39,471 nt of DNA from Escherichia phage vB_EcoM_SHAK9454. The translations under genes were made by a program, and so were the position numbers. Positions within the stretch are counted from its first letter, which is position 1. Each line of letters begins with the position of its first letter. The notes below the pieces were generated by a model. It saw only the letters and a program-made list of their open reading frames with translations, made no database searches and was not told the DNA's origin. Shown here piece after piece: positions 5,460 to 10,411 of this stretch. The stretch lies in the sequence record OR594184; one strand, written 5' to 3'.

Positions 5460-5482
5460 ACTTAACTATCACTATAGGACTC
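5460..5482 (+). promoter_or_regulatory. Phage RNAP promoter immediately upstream of the RNA polymerase gene
   Basis: ACTTAACTATCACTATAGGACTC, +1 G at 5477; leader 5477-5551 contains direct repeats AAGTGAAAGAC x2 and GACTTTAAGT x2. Confidence 0.75.
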
Positions 5483-5551
5483 AAGGTCTAAGACTCAAAG
5501 TGAAAGACCAAAGAGACTTTAAGTGAAAGACTAATAACAAGGACTTTAAGT

Positions 5552-8233
5552 ATGAGCGTCATCTCTATTGACAAACACGACTTCTCTGATGTGTCGAACG
5601 CCATTGAGCCGTTTAACCTGCTGGCTGACCACTACGGGCAAGACCTTGCAGTCAAACAGCTTCAGCTTGAGCATGAGGCATACACTGAAGGCGAGCGACG
5701 TTTCATCAAGAACCTTGAGCGGCAGACTGAGCGCGGGGAACTGGCAGACAATCAGGTCGCCAAGCCTTTGATGCAGACTCTGGTCCCTAAGATTGCGCAA
5801 GCCGTCAGGGAGTGGCACGAAGGCCAAGACGGGAAGCTGTCAACCTCTCGTCCGAGTGTAGCGTTCACCATGTTGAGCACTGAAGAGAAGGCCGTAAAGG
5901 AACGATCTCTGCGCATCTCCTGTGAGTCTGCTGCGGTTATCGTACTGAAGGTCATACTCTCCAAGCTGGTCAAGCCTGAAGGGATCCCGATTACACCTAT
6001 GGCCTCAGCGATAGGTCGCACACTTGAGGACGAAATCCGCTTCGGTCGCATCCGTGACAAAGAGAAAGAGCACTTCAAGAAGGCGATAGCTGATAACCTG
6101 AATAAGCGGGCCGGGGCGTCATATAAGAAAGCCTACATGCAAGCGGTCGAGGCGTCCATGCTGGAGCAAGGCCAACTGGAAGATGCGTGGGGGACTTGGA
6201 GTCCTACAGAGGCCGTCCACGTTGGCATCAAGATGCTCGAGATTGTCATCCAGTCAACACAACTGGTCGAGCTTAAGCGGTACGGTGCTGGTAATGCAGC
6301 GGCTGACGTAGAGATGGTCCACCTGTCAGACTTCTGGGTCAAGAAGATGGCACAACGAGGATTCAGCCTTGCGGGTATCGCCCCAGTCTACCAGCCTTGC
6401 GTCGTCCCACCTAAGCCGTGGACTGGTGTCGTAGGTGGTGGGTACTGGGCCAAAGGTCGCAGACCGTTACCATTGATTCGCTTAGGGTCTAAGTCTGCGG
6501 TAGCACGTTATGAAGACGTATACATGCCTGAAGTCTATGACGCTGTGAATATCATCCAGAATACACCTTGGAAAGTGAACAAGAAGGTATTGGACGTGGT
6601 GAACATGGTCGAGAAGCTGAACAACACGCCTATTGATGACATCCCTCAGATGGAACCGCTGAAGCCTGAGGACTATGCTGGTGAAACCGAGGAGGAACTC
6701 AAGGCATGGAAGAAGGCTGCTGCTGGTATCTATCGCCGCGAGAAGGCCAGACAGTCACGCAGATTATCGCTGAACTTTATCGTTAACCAAGCAAACAAGT
6801 TCTCTCAGTTCAAGGCCATCTGGTTCCCGTACAACATGGATTGGCGAGGTCGTGTCTACGCTGTGCCGATGTTCAACCCTCAGGGTAACGACATGCAAAA
6901 GGGTCTTCTGACTCTGGCAGTCGGTAAGCCTATTGGTGCTGATGGTTTCAAATGGCTGAAGGTTCACGGTGCAAACTGCGCGGGTGTCGATAAAGTCACC
7001 TTCGAGGAGCGTATCAAGTGGGTGGAAGATAACCACGACAACATCATGGCTGCTGCCAAGGCACCGATGGATAGCATTGAGTGGTGGGGCAAGTTAGACT
7101 CTCCGTTCTGCTTCCTAGCGTTCTGCTTCGAGTATGCTGGCGTAATGCACCACGGCTTGTCTTACTCCTGCTCGCTGCCGATAGCGTTCGATGGGTCCTG
7201 CTCTGGGATTCAGCACTTCAGCGCTATGCTTCGTGACCACATCGGTGGACATGCAGTAAACCTGACGCCATCCGGTAAGGTCCAAGACATCTACCGCATT
7301 GTGTCTGACCGCATTGAGGAGCAGCTTAAAGTACTGCTGATTAACGGCACTGACAACGAGATGGTCACTCACGAGGATAAGAAAACTGGTGAGATTACCG
7401 AACGTATCAAGCTGGGGACACGAGAGCTGGCCCGTCAGTGGCTGACATACGGTATGTCACGCAAGGTCACTAAGCGTTCAGTCATGACTCTGGCATACGG
7501 GTCGAAAGAGTACGGCTTCGCAGACCAAGTTTACGAGGACATCGTGATGCCAGCGATTGACTCAGGGTCTGGCGCTATGTTCACTGAACCAAGCCAAGCG
7601 TCTCGCTTCATGGCAAAGATGATTTGGGAAGCTGTGAGTGTGACAGTAGTTGCTGCGGTTGACGCGATGAAGTGGCTTCAAGGTGCTGCCAAGCTGCTGG
7701 CTGCTGAAGTGAAGGACAAGAAGACTGGAGAAATCCTGAAGCCTTGCCTTCCGGTACACTGGGTCACACCTGATGGTTTCCCTGTCTGGCAGGAATACCG
7801 CAAGAAGGACACCACTCGTCTGAACCTGATGTTCTTAGGGTCATTCAACCTTCAGCCTACCGTCAACAAAGGCACGAAGAAAGAGCTGGACAAGCACAAG
7901 CAGGAGTCAGGCATTAGCCCGAACTTCGTCCACTCACAAGATGGTAGCCACCTCCGCAAGACTGTAGTCCACACTCACCGAAAGTATGGCGTGATGTCAT
8001 TCGCAGTGATTCACGATAGCTTCGGGACCATCCCGGCTGACGCTGAGTATCTGTTCCGTGGAGTCCGTGAGACGATGGTAGAGACTTACCGCGATAACGA
8101 TGTGCTGCTTGACTTCTACGAGCAGTTTGAATACCAGCTTCACGAGAGCCAGCGCGACAAGTTGCCTGAGCTTCCGAAGAAAGGTAAACTGAATATCGAA
8201 GACATCTTGTCTTCAGACTTTGCATTCGCTTAA
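5552..8233 (+). CDS. Single-subunit DNA-dependent RNA polymerase (T7 gene 1-like)
   Basis: 893 aa; DGSCSGIQHFSAMLRD (motif A), HDSFGT (motif C), C-terminal DFAFA, specificity-loop region TRLNLMFLGSFNLQP. Confidence 0.98.
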   Translation: MSVISIDKHDFSDVSNAIEPFNLLADHYGQDLAVKQLQLEHEAYTEGERRFIKNLERQTERGELADNQVAKPLMQTLVPKIAQAVREWHEGQDGKLSTSRPSVAFTMLSTEEKAVKERSLRISCESAAVIVLKVILSKLVKPEGIPITPMASAIGRTLEDEIRFGRIRDKEKEHFKKAIADNLNKRAGASYKKAYMQAVEASMLEQGQLEDAWGTWSPTEAVHVGIKMLEIVIQSTQLVELKRYGAGNAAADVEMVHLSDFWVKKMAQRGFSLAGIAPVYQPCVVPPKPWTGVVGGGYWAKGRRPLPLIRLGSKSAVARYEDVYMPEVYDAVNIIQNTPWKVNKKVLDVVNMVEKLNNTPIDDIPQMEPLKPEDYAGETEEELKAWKKAAAGIYRREKARQSRRLSLNFIVNQANKFSQFKAIWFPYNMDWRGRVYAVPMFNPQGNDMQKGLLTLAVGKPIGADGFKWLKVHGANCAGVDKVTFEERIKWVEDNHDNIMAAAKAPMDSIEWWGKLDSPFCFLAFCFEYAGVMHHGLSYSCSLPIAFDGSCSGIQHFSAMLRDHIGGHAVNLTPSGKVQDIYRIVSDRIEEQLKVLLINGTDNEMVTHEDKKTGEITERIKLGTRELARQWLTYGMSRKVTKRSVMTLAYGSKEYGFADQVYEDIVMPAIDSGSGAMFTEPSQASRFMAKMIWEAVSVTVVAAVDAMKWLQGAAKLLAAEVKDKKTGEILKPCLPVHWVTPDGFPVWQEYRKKDTTRLNLMFLGSFNLQPTVNKGTKKELDKHKQESGISPNFVHSQDGSHLRKTVVHTHRKYGVMSFAVIHDSFGTIPADAEYLFRGVRETMVETYRDNDVLLDFYEQFEYQLHESQRDKLPELPKKGKLNIEDILSSDFAFA

Positions 8234-8248
8234 CAGGAGAAGAAGTAT

Positions 8249-8479
8249 ATGTCAATGAAACTTGTAGTACACAACAGAGTATACAACGATGGGTCGGGAC
8301 GTTGCCATGTAGAGCTTACTTATAAGGATTTAGTCATTCTCCGAGACAGATTACAAGCAGGTGTGACTGGGTGGATTCAACCTAACGAGTACAGCCTTAT
8401 AGCTTCGATTGATGAAGTGCTTAACGCGTGGATGGAAGACGAGCGCACTCAGTATCCGTCATTCCCTATAATTAGATAA
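8249..8479 (+). CDS. Hypothetical protein (76 aa) immediately downstream of the RNAP gene
   Basis: AGGAG 8235-8239 then ATG 8249; no recognised motif. Confidence 0.55.
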   Translation: MSMKLVVHNRVYNDGSGRCHVELTYKDLVILRDRLQAGVTGWIQPNEYSLIASIDEVLNAWMEDERTQYPSFPIIR

Positions 8480-8489
8480 GGAGAGAGTT

Positions 8490-8705
8490 ATGAAATTTGC
8501 ACACAAGCATGCTGGAGTTAAGGGTGGGACTCAAATCGTGACCGTAACAGAACACAACGGCAATGGTCTGGTGAAGACCACGGTCATTCCTACCGAAATG
8601 TCAAAGCAGCTTAACGTCCCATTCAAGACCCTCGTCTATCTTGTGGAATCCAGCCACGAGAAATACCTGAAAGACGCAGTGACCAAGCTGGAGCAGACCA
8701 AATGA
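8490..8705 (+). CDS. Hypothetical protein (71 aa)
   Basis: TAAGGAGAGAG then ATG 8490; no recognised motif. Confidence 0.55.
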   Translation: MKFAHKHAGVKGGTQIVTVTEHNGNGLVKTTVIPTEMSKQLNVPFKTLVYLVESSHEKYLKDAVTKLEQTK

Positions 8706-8780
8706 CAGACCTACAGTTACTGGCCTTGTGGCTGGGAGCACTCGCAGTATTCACTTTAATCCCACGCAGAAGAGGTTAAC

Positions 8781-8803
8781 CCTAAACTATCACTATAGGA
8801 TTA
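8781..8803 (+). promoter_or_regulatory. Phage RNAP promoter (phi1.1-like)
   Basis: CCTAAACTATCACTATAGGATTAG, +1 G at 8798. Confidence 0.8.
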
Positions 8804-8846
8804 GACTCAAGGTCATGACTCAAAGTCGTGGCCTTCATGATTAACC
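8801..8846 (+). promoter_or_regulatory. RNase III-like hairpin (late family, R1.1-like position)
   Basis: TAGACTCAAGGTCAT ... GTGGCCTTCATGATTAAC; 8-bp stem AAGGTCAT/GTGGCCTT with G-U pairs; same motif at 16014 and 38895. Confidence 0.5.
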
Positions 8847-8873
8847 CTAACTCATTCAATCAGGAGCTACACC

Positions 8874-9053
8874 ATGTATCAGAACACTATCAACTTCGAG
8901 CGAATCCGTGAACGTCAGCAGACTGAAGATTATATTCCGAAGGGACGCAAGCTGAACAAGACCAAGCGTGGTGGAGGTGTCAAGGGTGCTTTCCGTAACG
9001 CTGAAGGTAAAGACTCTCTGGTCAACCAAGAGAAATACTTCGTAGGAGCATAA
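8874..9053 (+). CDS. T7 gene 1.1-like small basic protein (59 aa)
   Basis: CAGGAG then ATG 8874; KGRKLNKTKR matches the recalled T7 gp1.1 motif; below the track cutoff. Confidence 0.6.
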   Translation: MYQNTINFERIRERQQTEDYIPKGRKLNKTKRGGGVKGAFRNAEGKDSLVNQEKYFVGA

Positions 9054-9057
9054 CGCT

Positions 9058-9315
9058 ATGGGCCGACTTTATAGTGGCAACCTAAACGCTTTCAAAGCAG
9101 CGTGTAACAGACTCTATCAGTTAGACTTCTGCGTGATACAGCAGGACTGGTACGATGCGCATTTTCGTAAAGAGTGTATGAGACTTCAAGTCGAGGACCG
9201 AGCTGGTAACATCTTCGCTCTTAAGACCTTCGCACATCACGATGAAGACGTACTGTACAACACTGCAACAGGCTTCCTTAACTGTCTCGCTAACCAACTA
9301 GACACATGGAGATAA
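9058..9315 (+). CDS. T7 gene 1.2-like protein (dGTPase inhibitor family)
   Basis: MGRLYSGNLNAFKAA...HHDEDVLYN closely matches the recalled T7 gp1.2. Confidence 0.85.
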   Translation: MGRLYSGNLNAFKAACNRLYQLDFCVIQQDWYDAHFRKECMRLQVEDRAGNIFALKTFAHHDEDVLYNTATGFLNCLANQLDTWR

Positions 9316-9319
9316 CACA

Positions 9320-10363
9320 ATGACAACTATTAAAACCAACCCGCACCGCGCTGTAGATTACTCTGAGTCAGGCGTTAAGAAAGCACTGGAAGCAGCCGGG
9401 TCGCTGGAAGCTGAAGTGAAATATGACGGTGTGCGGTTGAATATTCCGGTCTTCCCTGATGGGCGAACTGAATGGTTAAGCCGTGAGTCAAAGACGCTTC
9501 CGGCCTTAGACCATTTGTCAACAGTTGGTCAGGACATCGGAGCGTGCCGTGCGTCCGACTGGCGATGGTTCCTGAAGCAAGCAGGACATGAGGTATCTGG
9601 CCTGATGATTGATGGCGAGGTAATGGTCAAGGGTGCAGACTTCAACACGTCCTCAGGTCTTATCCGAACGAAGTGGACCAAGAAGACCAACGTTGATTGG
9701 CACACAGACCCGATGGCCCCAGCTAAAGTACCATTCTGTCTGGACCAGAAGTTCATCCAAGTGGTCGTCTACGGGGTCATCGACCTCAACGTCATCCTTG
9801 ACCCGAAAGCCGAAGGTCCTATCCATAGCGTCACTCGCCTGAAGGCCGAAGCTATCGTACCTCTCCTCCAGAAATACTTCCCGGAAATCGACTGGGTTCT
9901 GTCTGAGTCACACACGGTCTATGACCTTGAGTCGCTCAACTCCCTGTACGAACAGAAGCGTCTGGAAGGACATGAGGGTCTGGTAGTAAAGGACCCACTG
10001 GGTAAATATAAGCGCGGCAAGAAGTCAGGCATGTGGAAGATGAAGCCTGAGGAGACCATCGACGGGACCGTGTGTGGCCTCGTGTGGGGGACTCCGGGTA
10101 AGGCCAACGAAGGTAAGGTGATTGGCTTCGAGGTGCTGCTTGAGGATGGCATGGTGGTTAACGCCTGTGGTCTGTCTGAAGAACAGAAGGACGAGTTTAC
10201 GGAAGCCTGTAACACTGATACATATATTCTCGGTGGAATCAATCCGTACGAAGGATGGCAGTGTGAAGTACTCTTCATGGAGCGGTTCCCAGATGGATCC
10301 CTTCGTCACCCTAGCTTCAAGTGCTGGCGTGGAACGGAAGATAACCCAACCGTTAAGAGTTAA
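9320..10363 (+). CDS. ATP-dependent DNA ligase (T7 gene 1.3-like)
   Basis: 347 aa; adenylation motif KYDGVR; position after gene 1.2. Confidence 0.92.
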   Translation: MTTIKTNPHRAVDYSESGVKKALEAAGSLEAEVKYDGVRLNIPVFPDGRTEWLSRESKTLPALDHLSTVGQDIGACRASDWRWFLKQAGHEVSGLMIDGEVMVKGADFNTSSGLIRTKWTKKTNVDWHTDPMAPAKVPFCLDQKFIQVVVYGVIDLNVILDPKAEGPIHSVTRLKAEAIVPLLQKYFPEIDWVLSESHTVYDLESLNSLYEQKRLEGHEGLVVKDPLGKYKRGKKSGMWKMKPEETIDGTVCGLVWGTPGKANEGKVIGFEVLLEDGMVVNACGLSEEQKDEFTEACNTDTYILGGINPYEGWQCEVLFMERFPDGSLRHPSFKCWRGTEDNPTVKS

Positions 10364-10373
10364 CTAAACGTCA

Positions 10374-10411
10374 ACCCAGTGGTCTTCGGACTGCTGGGTT
10401 TCTTTGCTTTG
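10374..10411 (+). terminator. Early transcription terminator (TE-like), intrinsic
   Basis: Hairpin ACCCAGTGG-tcttcgga-CTGCTGGGTT followed by TTTCTTTGCTTTG, directly after the ligase gene as in T7. Confidence 0.6.

Follow-up and report, generated by a model that had tools for sequence, protein, structure and literature searches.

What is encoded between the RNA polymerase gene and the next phage promoter in a K1F-like phage, and what might the products do? In T7, promoters and the replication origin directly follow gene 1; nothing is reportedly encoded between that gene and the phi1.1 promoters, and the T7 gene 1 mRNA, once processed by RNase III, is said to be monocistronic. The window analyzed here, a stretch of 39,471 nucleotides from Escherichia phage vB_EcoM_SHAK9454 (record OR594184), is a circularly permuted Kayfunavirus genome (K1F-like, T7 family). 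Its gene 1, identified from the ORF list and from the RNA polymerase label in all related records, encodes a single-subunit phage RNA polymerase of 893 aa and lies at 5552-8233 on the plus strand. It is followed on the same strand by ORF1 (76 aa, 8249-8479; ATG, 76 codons and TAA), ORF2 (71 aa, 8490-8705; ATG, 71 codons and TGA) and a micro-ORF (8702-8779; 25 codons and TAA) with the 25-aa product MTDLQLLALWLGALAVFTLIPRRRG. The first-pass annotation had described ORF1 and ORF2 as two uncharacterized small genes with good ribosome-binding sites, lying ahead of a promoter, and had mentioned a hydrophobic 25-codon micro-ORF at 8701-8778 as an aside. The coordinates of the two larger ORFs proved exact, while those of the micro-ORF were off by one. 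The contrast that had been drawn with T7 is valid, as the first promoter after gene 1 here comes only past all three ORFs, and the micro-ORF turns out to tell more than the two larger genes.

Open frames of these sizes are frequent by chance: 55 ORFs that reach 50 aa or more occur in the first 12 kb of the window, and many of these lie within the RNA polymerase gene or run antisense to it. Since length alone does not set the three ORFs beyond chance, they have been accepted as genes because of their conservation. Across relatives, the frame given above is in each case the sole one that is both open and low in pN/pS, with values of 0.33-0.36 for ORF1, 0.22 for ORF2 and 0.27 for the micro-ORF; these are drawn pairwise from kindred sequences and so are not independent observations. 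The alternative frames have pN/pS of at least 0.86 or carry stops in all of the compared sequences, except that the third frame of the micro-ORF is stopped in just 5 of 28, yet has a pN/pS of 1.10 (its other alternative frame gives 0.99). The order RNA polymerase-ORF1-ORF2-micro-ORF, or the same without ORF1, was seen in 37/37 relatives examined, and holds even where the alleles are only 38-51% (ORF1) and 40-53% (ORF2) identical to those of the window. The suggestion that these are real small genes is borne out by this purifying selection and by their constant position in many relatives, and by these measures ORF1 and ORF2 are judged to be real but ordinary genes. The paper library searched contained no ribosome-profiling or proteomic data for any Kayfunavirus, and no paper in which an accession or a PHROG number of these proteins is given.

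ORF1 is preceded by a Shine-Dalgarno sequence, CAGGAG at 8234-8239, 9 nt ahead of its ATG, and encodes an acidic (pI 5.5), soluble protein. It belongs to a known family and is not new: it matches the phrog_28104 profile with an E-value of 6.4e-53, residues 1-76 aligning to profile positions 1-76 of 76, and is called a hypothetical protein in related annotations. Among these, EcoDS1 AS9_0007, listed as "unknown product", is 88% identical and occupies the same slot. The exact ORF1 protein of the window was absent from a collection of 15 billion proteins. Copies of ORF1 with 87-95% amino acid identity occur in 39 phage records, as against about 220 phages that carry ORF2; most relatives are without it, including most phages with a near-identical RNA polymerase. 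The slot itself, in which RNA polymerase is followed by ORF1 and then by a member of the ORF2 family, is seen in the window, ASO2B, EcoDS1, LM33_P1 and others, and the junctions of this optional cassette consist of AGGAG microhomology, gain or loss occurring precisely between two AGGAG ribosome-binding sites. More divergent alleles, of 38-51% identity, lie directly after the RNA polymerase gene in six metagenomic loci (L007, L034, L035 and L045-L047), in each case ahead of an ORF2-family gene except in L034, whose contig stops short of the ORF2 slot, and widen the phrog_28104 family. Four further IMG/VR loci (L024-L027) were rejected as relatives, the match being a chance one of 8 residues (GWIQPNEY, within ORF1 residues 32-50) to an unrelated, doubtful ORF. 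Among close relatives, ORF1 is under moderate purifying selection (pN/pS 0.18-0.53, from few substitutions), and in one of them, vB_Eco_1RS, it is frameshifted. The AF2 model is of low confidence (pLDDT 62) and consists of a beta-hairpin and two helices.

ORF2, whose Shine-Dalgarno sequence AAGGAG (8478-8483) lies across the ORF1 stop and 6 nt ahead of the ATG, encodes a basic protein (pI 9.5). It too is already known, being annotated as a hypothetical protein in relatives: residues 1-66 match profile positions 1-66 of 66 of phrog_8082 (E 4.8e-41), and phage IME177 encodes a protein with 100% identity to it. The family includes K1F "gp1.1" (CKV1F_gp06, YP_338095), with orthologs in EcoDS1, Dev2, SH3-SH5 and others; its members share 66- and 71-aa forms and the same place in the genome, in K1F 12-15 nt past the RNA polymerase stop. 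The sole difference in the window is the ORF1 inserted between RNA polymerase and ORF2. A tblastn search detected homologs with identities as low as 42% in a total of 219 phage records, and essentially every Kayfunavirus examined has one. ORF2 is at the same time a variable island, with nucleotide identities of 0.49-0.56 as against 0.87-0.97 in its flanks, and of 0.49-0.51 where the 3' end of the RNA polymerase gene is 0.97 identical. As read from these alignments, several deeply divergent ORF2 alleles sit in an otherwise near-identical backbone. Codons 1-46 have a pN/pS of 0.11; positive selection on the variable C-terminal helix was considered and left no sign (pN/pS 0.07-0.34). The AF2 model (pLDDT 79) has a three-stranded sheet followed by a short and a long helix. 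ORF1 and ORF2 are not tandem paralogs, the hhalign probability being below 1%.

The micro-ORF is intact in all 37 relatives examined, with 25 codons in 36 of them and 26 in L035. The ATG and the ORF2 stop share bases (AAATGA), and all 37 have this start-stop overlap in the form (A/G)TGA; a GGAG at 8690-8693 lies 12 nt upstream of the start in the window, and an SD-like tetramer is found upstream in 34/37. This arrangement fits translational coupling of the micro-ORF to ORF2. Residues 6-20 of the peptide make up a hydrophobic core (mean Kyte-Doolittle 2.1-2.5) and its C-terminus is RRRG, the charge of its last five residues being +3, or +2 in L016, and it is predicted to be a single-pass, single-helix membrane peptide. 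It is of the same type as AcrZ, MgtS and the type I toxins of E. coli and the superinfection-exclusion peptides of phages, which are single-helix membrane peptides of about 20-50 aa; the likeness is one of size, of a single hydrophobic helix and of a positive cytoplasmic end, and is put forward as one of type only. In L016 and L035 the arginine codons vary synonymously and the RRR motif is retained, while the hydrophobic core swaps solely to other hydrophobic residues. The DNA is found by blastn in 221 phage records, in 150 of which it is 95-99% identical, even beside ORF2 alleles less than 60% identical in protein; its conservation is about equal to that of the neighboring coding backbone. 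In relatives, gene 1.05 is a separate gene lying 3' of the micro-ORF, and it is absent from the window; where it is present, the last micro-ORF codons AGA AGA GGT double as its ribosome-binding site. Because of this role, and because the conservation is no more than backbone-like, part of it could be at the nucleotide level.

Judged on reading frame and substitution pattern, the micro-ORF is a real, conserved coding gene missed by most annotations. The only annotated copies found are Escherichia phage GA2A gp10 (YP_009324944), whose peptide MTDLKWLALWLAFLAVYTLIQRRRG is one allele type among relatives, and IMM-002 gp14 (YP_009812842), both being the same 25-codon gene following ORF2. The commonest peptide (…LGALAVFTLIQRRRG) and the version in the window were both absent from the 15-billion-protein collection. 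In the inspected records the gene is either left unannotated or replaced by a 38-aa ORF called in another frame. That ORF, which begins with GTG and lies at 8728-8844, appears in some GenBank records and is judged spurious: it has a pN/pS of 1.10 and stops in 5/28 sequences, and it crosses the promoter. The DUF2842 label given to the IMM-002 copy in RefSeq is also unsupported, hmmscan of the 25-aa peptide returning 0 Pfam families at E <=1.

The promoter that follows is an exact copy of the K1F-type consensus 18-mer, CTAAACTATCACTATAGG, at 8782-8799 on the plus strand; it is annotated as a promoter in ASO2B, is the analog of T7 phi1.1 and, as the downstream limit of the three-gene block, confirms that a phage promoter lies just past the ORFs. 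A second one, CTTAACTATCACTATAGG, with 1 mismatch to the consensus, lies on the plus strand at 5461-5478, about 75 nt upstream of gene 1, where it bounds the transcription unit on its upstream side, and the same element is found upstream of gene 1 in K1F (locus L041, 2478-2492). Allowing up to 3 mismatches, the 18-mer has 11 matches in the window, against 0.03 expected by chance. Downstream of the 8782 promoter, positions 8809-8835 (plus strand) form a 12-bp RNA hairpin (fold of 8798-8873: -20 kcal/mol, z-score -2.8), and a hairpin-forming sequence resembling it follows the 5461 promoter. The hairpin is annotated as a terminator in ASO2B, although it lacks a following T-run; by analogy with T7 R1.1, it is probably a site at which RNase III processes the transcript. 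Between gene 1 and 8782, there is no match to the phage promoter and the scan detected no terminator, so the three genes can be co-transcribed with gene 1, from 5461 or from further upstream. The presence of the 5461 promoter means that this transcription need not be by host RNA polymerase alone. A terminator-like site is found at 10373-10400, after the ligase gene.

The proteins themselves gave little to go on. None of the three had a match in Pfam or NCBIfam scans, and none matched any anti-phage defense model of PADLOC-DB at E <=1 (0 families). Pfam scans of all members of the ORF1 and ORF2 alignments gave at best DUF3117 (E 0.04-0.26) and DUF6296 (E 0.013), both under the cutoffs, and profile searches of solved structures in the PDB returned only matches with E >1. 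Fold searches with the models were not significant either: the best for ORF2 were Pur-alpha in the PDB (E 0.8) and uncharacterized proteins in BFVD (0.08), and the best for ORF1 in the PDB was Tad1 (E 0.34). No match at E <=1 was found to PF08200, the T7 gene 1.1 family, nor was there any to PF25755 (Phage_T3_1_05), the T3 gene 1.05 family, and no homolog of the three ORFs that would point to a host or plasmid origin was detected, either among 5,426 complete E. coli genomes or within PLSDB. The remote-homology search proposed with the first-pass annotation thus failed to link any of the three genes, by sequence or by fold, to a protein whose function is known. The description "uncharacterized" stands as far as function by sequence or fold is concerned, and fails where it would imply novelty, ORF1 and ORF2 being members of phrog_28104 and phrog_8082 and already listed as hypothetical proteins.

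We consider it likely that the three are real coding genes forming the 3' end of the gene 1 early unit, and that they have a host-directed accessory role. Early in infection, host RNA polymerase would also transcribe the unit, as in T7, and RNase III would cut at the hairpins after each promoter, leaving one gene 1-ORF1-ORF2-micro-ORF mRNA; relative to T7, the gene 1 mRNA would carry three extra cistrons. Ribosomes would pass from ORF2 directly into the micro-ORF by way of the start-stop overlap and the SD-like sequence in the last ORF2 codons, and the resulting peptide would enter the inner membrane by its one helix, leaving the RRRG tail on the cytoplasmic side. The acidic ORF1 and basic ORF2 products may be small soluble proteins that bind or modulate host proteins, serving takeover, anti-defense or exclusion rather than core phage replication. 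T7 early proteins of known function act by stoichiometric binding to host proteins. The T7 class I small proteins (Ocr/gp0.3, gp0.4, gp0.6, gp1.1, gp1.2) are likewise expressed early, from before the post-ligase terminator, and like the products of the three ORFs are small, non-universal and devoid of enzymatic domains; they have no sequence or fold similarity to them. As the homology and fold searches were uninformative, the proposed host-binding role draws on this analogy only, and we infer from it that small host-directed accessory proteins are the most likely identity of all three. A narrower and rather doubtful version is that ORF2 and the membrane peptide make up an unrecognized two-part early module at the inner membrane, present in every Kayfunavirus examined. 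A basic cytoplasmic protein and a membrane anchor would then be produced at a constant ratio, for instance for superinfection exclusion or to block a membrane-associated host factor of defense or division; ORF1 would be an optional addition to the module, and the replacement of ORF2 alleles an adaptation to variable host targets.

Other readings of the locus have been weighed against that of host-directed accessory genes. That the frames are open by chance alone, or were produced by gene callers from a spacer that codes for nothing, might be argued from the commonness of such sizes by chance in the window and from the ORFs being known from sequence alone; the selection, synteny and ribosome-binding sites described above, along with the remote homologs that profile searches place in the same slot, effectively refute it. 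It is somewhat less improbable, but still improbable, that the stretch is mainly cis-acting, with the ORFs, above all the micro-ORF, conserved for their DNA or RNA and not for the protein; it might be a replication origin, an element upstream of the promoter, a signal for RNA processing or the ribosome-binding site of the next gene. The primary origin of T7 does lie just after gene 1, the near-identity of the micro-ORF DNA in 150 of the 221 records persists despite the divergence of the adjoining ORF2, and AGAGG at the 3' end of the micro-ORF is the Shine-Dalgarno sequence of gene 1.05 in phages carrying that gene. Conservation for its nucleotides is nevertheless hard to reconcile with a pN/pS that is low in one frame and near 1 elsewhere, with a frame that is never broken among the 37 relatives, or with an RRR motif that L016 and L035 encode by other arginine codons and a core whose changes stay hydrophobic; the level of conservation, moreover, equals that of the flanking coding backbone, and positions 7800-9400 contain no Rfam match, no significant repeat and no AT-rich tract (minimum GC 0.37).

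An equally improbable reading is that ORF1, ORF2 or both modulate the phage RNA polymerase or its transcription, as T7 lysozyme (gp3.5) does with T7 RNA polymerase, and are encoded beside gene 1 so as to be made in proportion to it. Both invariably adjoin gene 1 and are in its transcription unit, even in remote lineages, and the high pI of ORF2 would suit such a role; in T7-like phages, however, adjacency is known to follow from the sequence in which genes enter the cell and are expressed, and not from what they do. ORF2 alleles are swapped independently of the adjoining 3' end of the RNA polymerase gene, ORF1 is missing from most phages in which that polymerase is near-identical, and neither resembles lysozyme or any known RNA polymerase-binding protein. 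The predicted secondary structures end in a strand and two helices (ORF1: strand 20-23, helices 25-37 and 45-67; ORF2: strand 28-34, helices 35-41 and 45-70), the arrangement of small ribbon-helix-helix DNA-binding regulators. We hold this to be quite improbable for either, as no family of that type was matched in Pfam at E <=1 no such chain emerged from the PDB profile search, and no such protein was among the matches listed by Foldseek; the first of the ORF2 helices has just 7 residues, and the loop between the ORF1 helices is much longer than in ribbon-helix-helix proteins. For ORF1 there is also the resemblance to Tad1, an anti-Thoeris sponge that sequesters gcADPR: the best Foldseek matches in the PDB are Tad1 chains from a Clostridium prophage (E 0.34-1.4, probability 0.35-0.60), and the patchy distribution of the cassette is typical of anti-defense genes. 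A relationship is very improbable, given that the match is not significant (E >0.3, rmsd 9 Å, TM 0.44/0.31, on a model of pLDDT 62), that ORF1 has 76 aa as against about 120, and that neither PDB profile search nor Pfam detects any similarity in sequence.

ORF1, through its presence or absence, and ORF2, through its swapped alleles, are natural candidates for determinants of host range or anti-defense in a genus whose phages serve in studies of phage therapy and of the K1 capsule. The finding is of limited direct significance, and the current understanding of T7-like phages is left unchallenged: in K1F-like phages, two or three small cistrons absent in T7, from families without an assigned function, belong to the gene 1 unit. 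There is practical value for annotation as well. A conserved gene for a putative membrane peptide of 25 codons is missing from nearly all Kayfunavirus genomes as annotated, several records carrying in its place the spurious ORF across the promoter. The name "gp1.1" given to ORF2 in K1F is also misleading, as this protein has no relationship to its T7 namesake. The genuine homolog of T7 gene 1.1 is the next gene, at 8874-9053 on the plus strand (59 aa; "gp1.15" in K1F), which matches PF08200 (Phage_1_1) with an E-value of 1e-10 and 42 bits against a cutoff of 21, so that the K1F name must be positional and not based on homology. This gene is the first one past the 8782 promoter and lies outside the block of three ORFs.

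The 1-kb stretch around the two small ORFs that follow the RNA polymerase (RNAP) gene of SHAK9454 shows 93-98% DNA identity to many Escherichia phages of the genus Kayfunavirus (K1F-like; Autographiviridae/Studiervirinae), including LI10P1, IME177, PH1061 and LM33_P1. The window begins within the large terminase gene (1-1731; PF22530, Terminase-T7 RNaseH-like, E 1e-37) and is therefore a whole genome, circularly permuted relative to the T7-type map; gene 1, encoding the single-subunit RNAP, lies at 5552-8233 (+). Beyond it, ORF1 (8249-8479 (+), 76 codons) and ORF2 (8490-8705 (+), 71 codons) are just where the first-pass annotation placed them, and the good ribosome-binding sites it reported are CAGGAG, 9 nt 5' of the ORF1 start, and AAGGAG, 6 nt 5' of the ORF2 start and overlapping the ORF1 stop. 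The possible micro-ORF that it put at 8701-8778 does have 25 codons, but lies one nucleotide further on, at 8702-8779 (+), with GGAG 12 nt upstream and an ATG overlapping the ORF2 stop (AAATGA). The promoter seen 3' of these ORFs is an exact match to the K1F promoter 18-mer, at 8782-8799; allowing up to 3 mismatches, this 18-mer has 11 matches in the window, versus 0.03 expected.

Since 55 ORFs of 50 aa or longer fall wholly or partly in the window's first 12 kb, ORF length alone says little and the test must be comparative. From IMG/VR, GenBank and Logan assemblies 47 loci were collected, some of them duplicates or chance matches, and 37 carry the block. The proposed frame of ORF1 and ORF2 is the sole one open in all aligned sequences; its pN/pS (summed pairwise Nei-Gojobori, ungapped alignments) is 0.33 for ORF1, or 0.36 once a 46%-identical allele is added, and 0.22 for ORF2. 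Other frames give 0.86 to 2.9, except for the antisense frame sharing wobble positions, which gives 0.22-0.39 but is interrupted by stop codons in every sequence. The micro-ORF is represented by 28 distinct nucleotide sequences, translating into 18 peptides, every one exactly 25 codons long; pN/pS is 0.27 in frame versus 0.99 and 1.10 in the two alternatives. Even L035, a phage contig further removed (its ORF2 has only about 40% identity), has a 26-codon version with a GTG start, a GTGA overlap with the ORF2 stop and the product VTDNQLWLTLWSAFLITFIVFQRRRG, its RRR motif being spelled with different arginine codons. Frame openness, in-frame pN/pS and the keeping of the micro-ORF across relatives argue that all three are coding by evolutionary criteria, as had been proposed for the two ORFs and more guardedly for the third, and they are very probably real, co-expressed genes.

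The whole of ORF1 aligns to phrog_28104 (E 6e-53). EcoDS1 was the first phage to have it annotated, as "unknown product"; GenBank has just 39 phage records with it, all at 87-95% identity, and a 5.8-billion-protein index just 9 clusters, each at least 86% identical. A profile including a 46%-identical IMG/VR allele led to four further alleles (44-51% identity), and an exhaustive HMM search of 1.84 billion representatives to two remote members at 38-43% identity, P0134 (E 4e-9) and P0135 (E 6e-9); three long repetitive proteins also returned are regarded as spurious. All divergent members lie 12-15 nt past the RNAP stop and, wherever the contig reaches far enough, directly 5' of an ORF2 homolog. 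Most Kayfunavirus genomes, K1F included, have no ORF1, and there it is the ORF2 start that lies 12-15 nt past the RNAP stop. The junction reads TAACAGGAG/AGAGTTATG without ORF1 and TAACAGGAG/AAG…ORF1…TAAGGAG/AGAGTTATG with it; ORF1 is thus a cassette bounded by two ribosome-binding sites sharing AGGAG microhomology. In vB_Eco_1RS (PV615263; collected locus L033, 701-930) a 1-nt frameshift breaks ORF1 into a pair of annotated 38-aa ORFs, through either an error in sequencing or natural loss of the gene; a natural pseudogene would support the dispensability of ORF1.

ORF2 matches phrog_8082 (E 5e-41), is 100% identical to an IME177 protein and is found in 219 phage records, at identities down to 42%. 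It is the gene named "gp1.1" in K1F, EcoDS1 and Dev2, but despite this name is unrelated to T7 gp1.1; PF08200 matches the next gene, 8874-9053 (K1F "gp1.15"), and not ORF2. That "gp1.1" in Kayfunavirus carries no homology claim is a useful result. The first 46 residues hardly vary (pN/pS 0.11), and the C-terminal helix comes in 66-aa and 71-aa classes, with pN/pS of 0.34 overall and 0.07-0.27 within classes, neither giving any sign of positive selection on it. In Salmonella phage ST21, E. coli phage phiHAO2-2 and Cronobacter phage GW1, nucleotide identity to the window is 0.49-0.56 for ORF2, while it is 0.87-0.97 for the RNAP 3' end and 0.79-0.96 for the micro-ORF; ORF2 is thus a variable island, whose alleles have been exchanged while the backbone around it stayed conserved. 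In some records and assemblies ORF2 is extended at its N-terminus so as to start inside ORF1, giving 97- or 89-aa forms (e.g., PH1061, OQ680138, locus L029, 864-1157; 89-aa protein-cluster members P0146 and P0148-P0150); the family alignment, and the conserved AGGAG with ATG where the 71-aa form begins, show this to be a start-codon miscall.

As DNA the micro-ORF is found in 221 phage records, essentially those with ORF2; annotations of it were found only in GA2A (YP_009324944) and IMM-002 (HOU26_gp14), where the label "DUF2842" has no Pfam support, and its commonest peptide is absent from a 15-billion-protein collection. The (A/G)TGA overlap with ORF2, found in all 37 loci, and the SD-like tetramer that 34 of them have 8-16 nt upstream, across all ORF2 allele classes, support a putative translational coupling of the micro-ORF to ORF2. 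The peptide starts acidic (MTD), has its hydrophobic core at residues 6-20 (mean Kyte-Doolittle 2.1-2.5) and ends in (Q/P)RRRG; from the core and the C-terminal charge, the positive-inside rule predicts a single membrane helix with its tail in the cytoplasm. The useful result here is a gene for a predicted membrane peptide that is conserved, very probably real and hardly ever annotated. At codon 21 (8762-8764) the window has Pro (IPRRRG), where Gln stands in each of the 37 relatives examined (IQRRRG and variants; position 22 in L035); the window's exact 78-nt sequence is shared only with phage pO2 (OR228483). Several GenBank relatives (vB_EcoP-101136BS1, vB_Aba_01KA, vB_Eco_1RS) have instead an annotated 38-aa GTG ORF, 8728-8844 (+), which lies in another frame, overlaps the micro-ORF and crosses the 8782 promoter and the hairpin that follows; it is probably a spurious call displacing the real micro-ORF, since its pN/pS is 1.10 and stop codons occur in 5 of 28 relatives.

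In this part of the genome, phage promoters are matched at 5461, 8782 and 10448; another lies at 1827. The one at 5461, CTTAACTATCACTATAGG, has 1 mismatch and lies about 75 nt 5' of gene 1, as in K1F (locus L041, 2478-2492); this would allow positive feedback, with the phage RNAP transcribing the gene that encodes it. T7 is not known to have such a promoter immediately 5' of gene 1. A 12-bp hairpin at 8809-8835 follows the 8782 promoter (76-nt fold, -20 kcal/mol, z -2.8), and a similar hairpin-forming sequence follows the 5461 promoter (5461-5510). By analogy with T7 R1 and R1.1 both may be RNase III sites, whose cleavage would leave one processed mRNA common to gene 1, ORF1, ORF2 and the micro-ORF; the T7 gene 1 mRNA, in contrast, is reportedly monocistronic. 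Early transcription of this unit would, as in T7, be by host RNAP; a sigma-70 consensus scan gave 10 sites versus 9.5 expected. A terminator-like hairpin with a T-run lies at 10373-10400, 3' of the ligase gene. A 10-nt direct repeat, TTAACCCTAA, at 8776 and 8841 flanks the promoter-hairpin unit. Many relatives have, after the micro-ORF stop and before the phi1.1-like promoter, an inserted gene of ~150-165 aa (T3 1.05-like, PF25755; "gp1.05"/"gp1.06"), with its ATG 2-6 nt past that stop and, as its SD, the AGAGG of the micro-ORF RRG codons; the window has no such gene, and in collected locus L003 (1790-2270) its reading frame contains an in-frame TAG.

ORF1 is acidic (pI 5.5), and its low-confidence AF2 model (pLDDT 62) has a beta-hairpin round an invariant DG(S)G turn, then two helices; ORF2 is basic (pI 9.5), with a moderately confident model (pLDDT 79) of a three-stranded meander, then a short helix and, at the C-terminus, a long one. 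Nothing informative for any of the three came from Pfam, NCBIfam, PADLOC or PDB sequence-profile searches, nor from Foldseek (best E 0.8 in PDB and 0.08 in BFVD for ORF2; 0.34, to Tad1, for ORF1). No ORF1/ORF2 paralogy was detectable, no homologs of the three were found in E. coli genomes or plasmids, and a literature search found no mention of the proteins. The searches assigned no function to any of the three, in keeping with "uncharacterised", but ORF1 and ORF2 are already known: each falls in an established family of hypothetical phage proteins, with annotated copies in dozens of relatives. The finding of the first-pass annotation is correct but ordinary.

Most likely the three products are small accessory proteins expressed early from the gene 1 transcription unit; ORF2 would form a conserved, translationally coupled pair with the membrane peptide, and ORF1 would be an optional add-on. 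The early position, small size without enzymatic domains, patchy presence of ORF1 and swapping of ORF2 alleles suggest this reading, and in them the products resemble the T7 class I proteins, whose mode of action is binding to proteins of the host; by that likeness a host-directed role (takeover, anti-defense or exclusion) is considered most likely, if still tentative. Chance ORFs are refuted by the comparative data, and an element acting mainly in cis, for example an origin or ribosome-binding site, is argued against by the frame-specific selection and by finding no AT-rich, repeat or RNA-family signals in the region. Modulation of the phage RNAP was considered, its sole basis being adjacency to gene 1, but the alleles swap independently of that gene. 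Ribbon-helix-helix DNA binding would fit the predicted secondary-structure pattern but has neither profile nor fold support, and for a Tad1-like sponge the fold match is not significant. As a cassette and a set of exchanged alleles, respectively, ORF1 and ORF2 are reasonable first candidates for host-range or anti-defense determinants in Kayfunavirus.

Two records matching this region, "Acinetobacter phage vB_Aba_01KA" (PV615262; search matches H2 and H68) and "Enterococcus phage EFA-1" (MT350292; H117), are labeled as infecting Acinetobacter baumannii and Enterococcus faecalis, respectively. The region is 95-97% identical in nucleotide sequence to that of E. coli phages in both; the host assignments look doubtful, and contamination or mislabeling seems possible.
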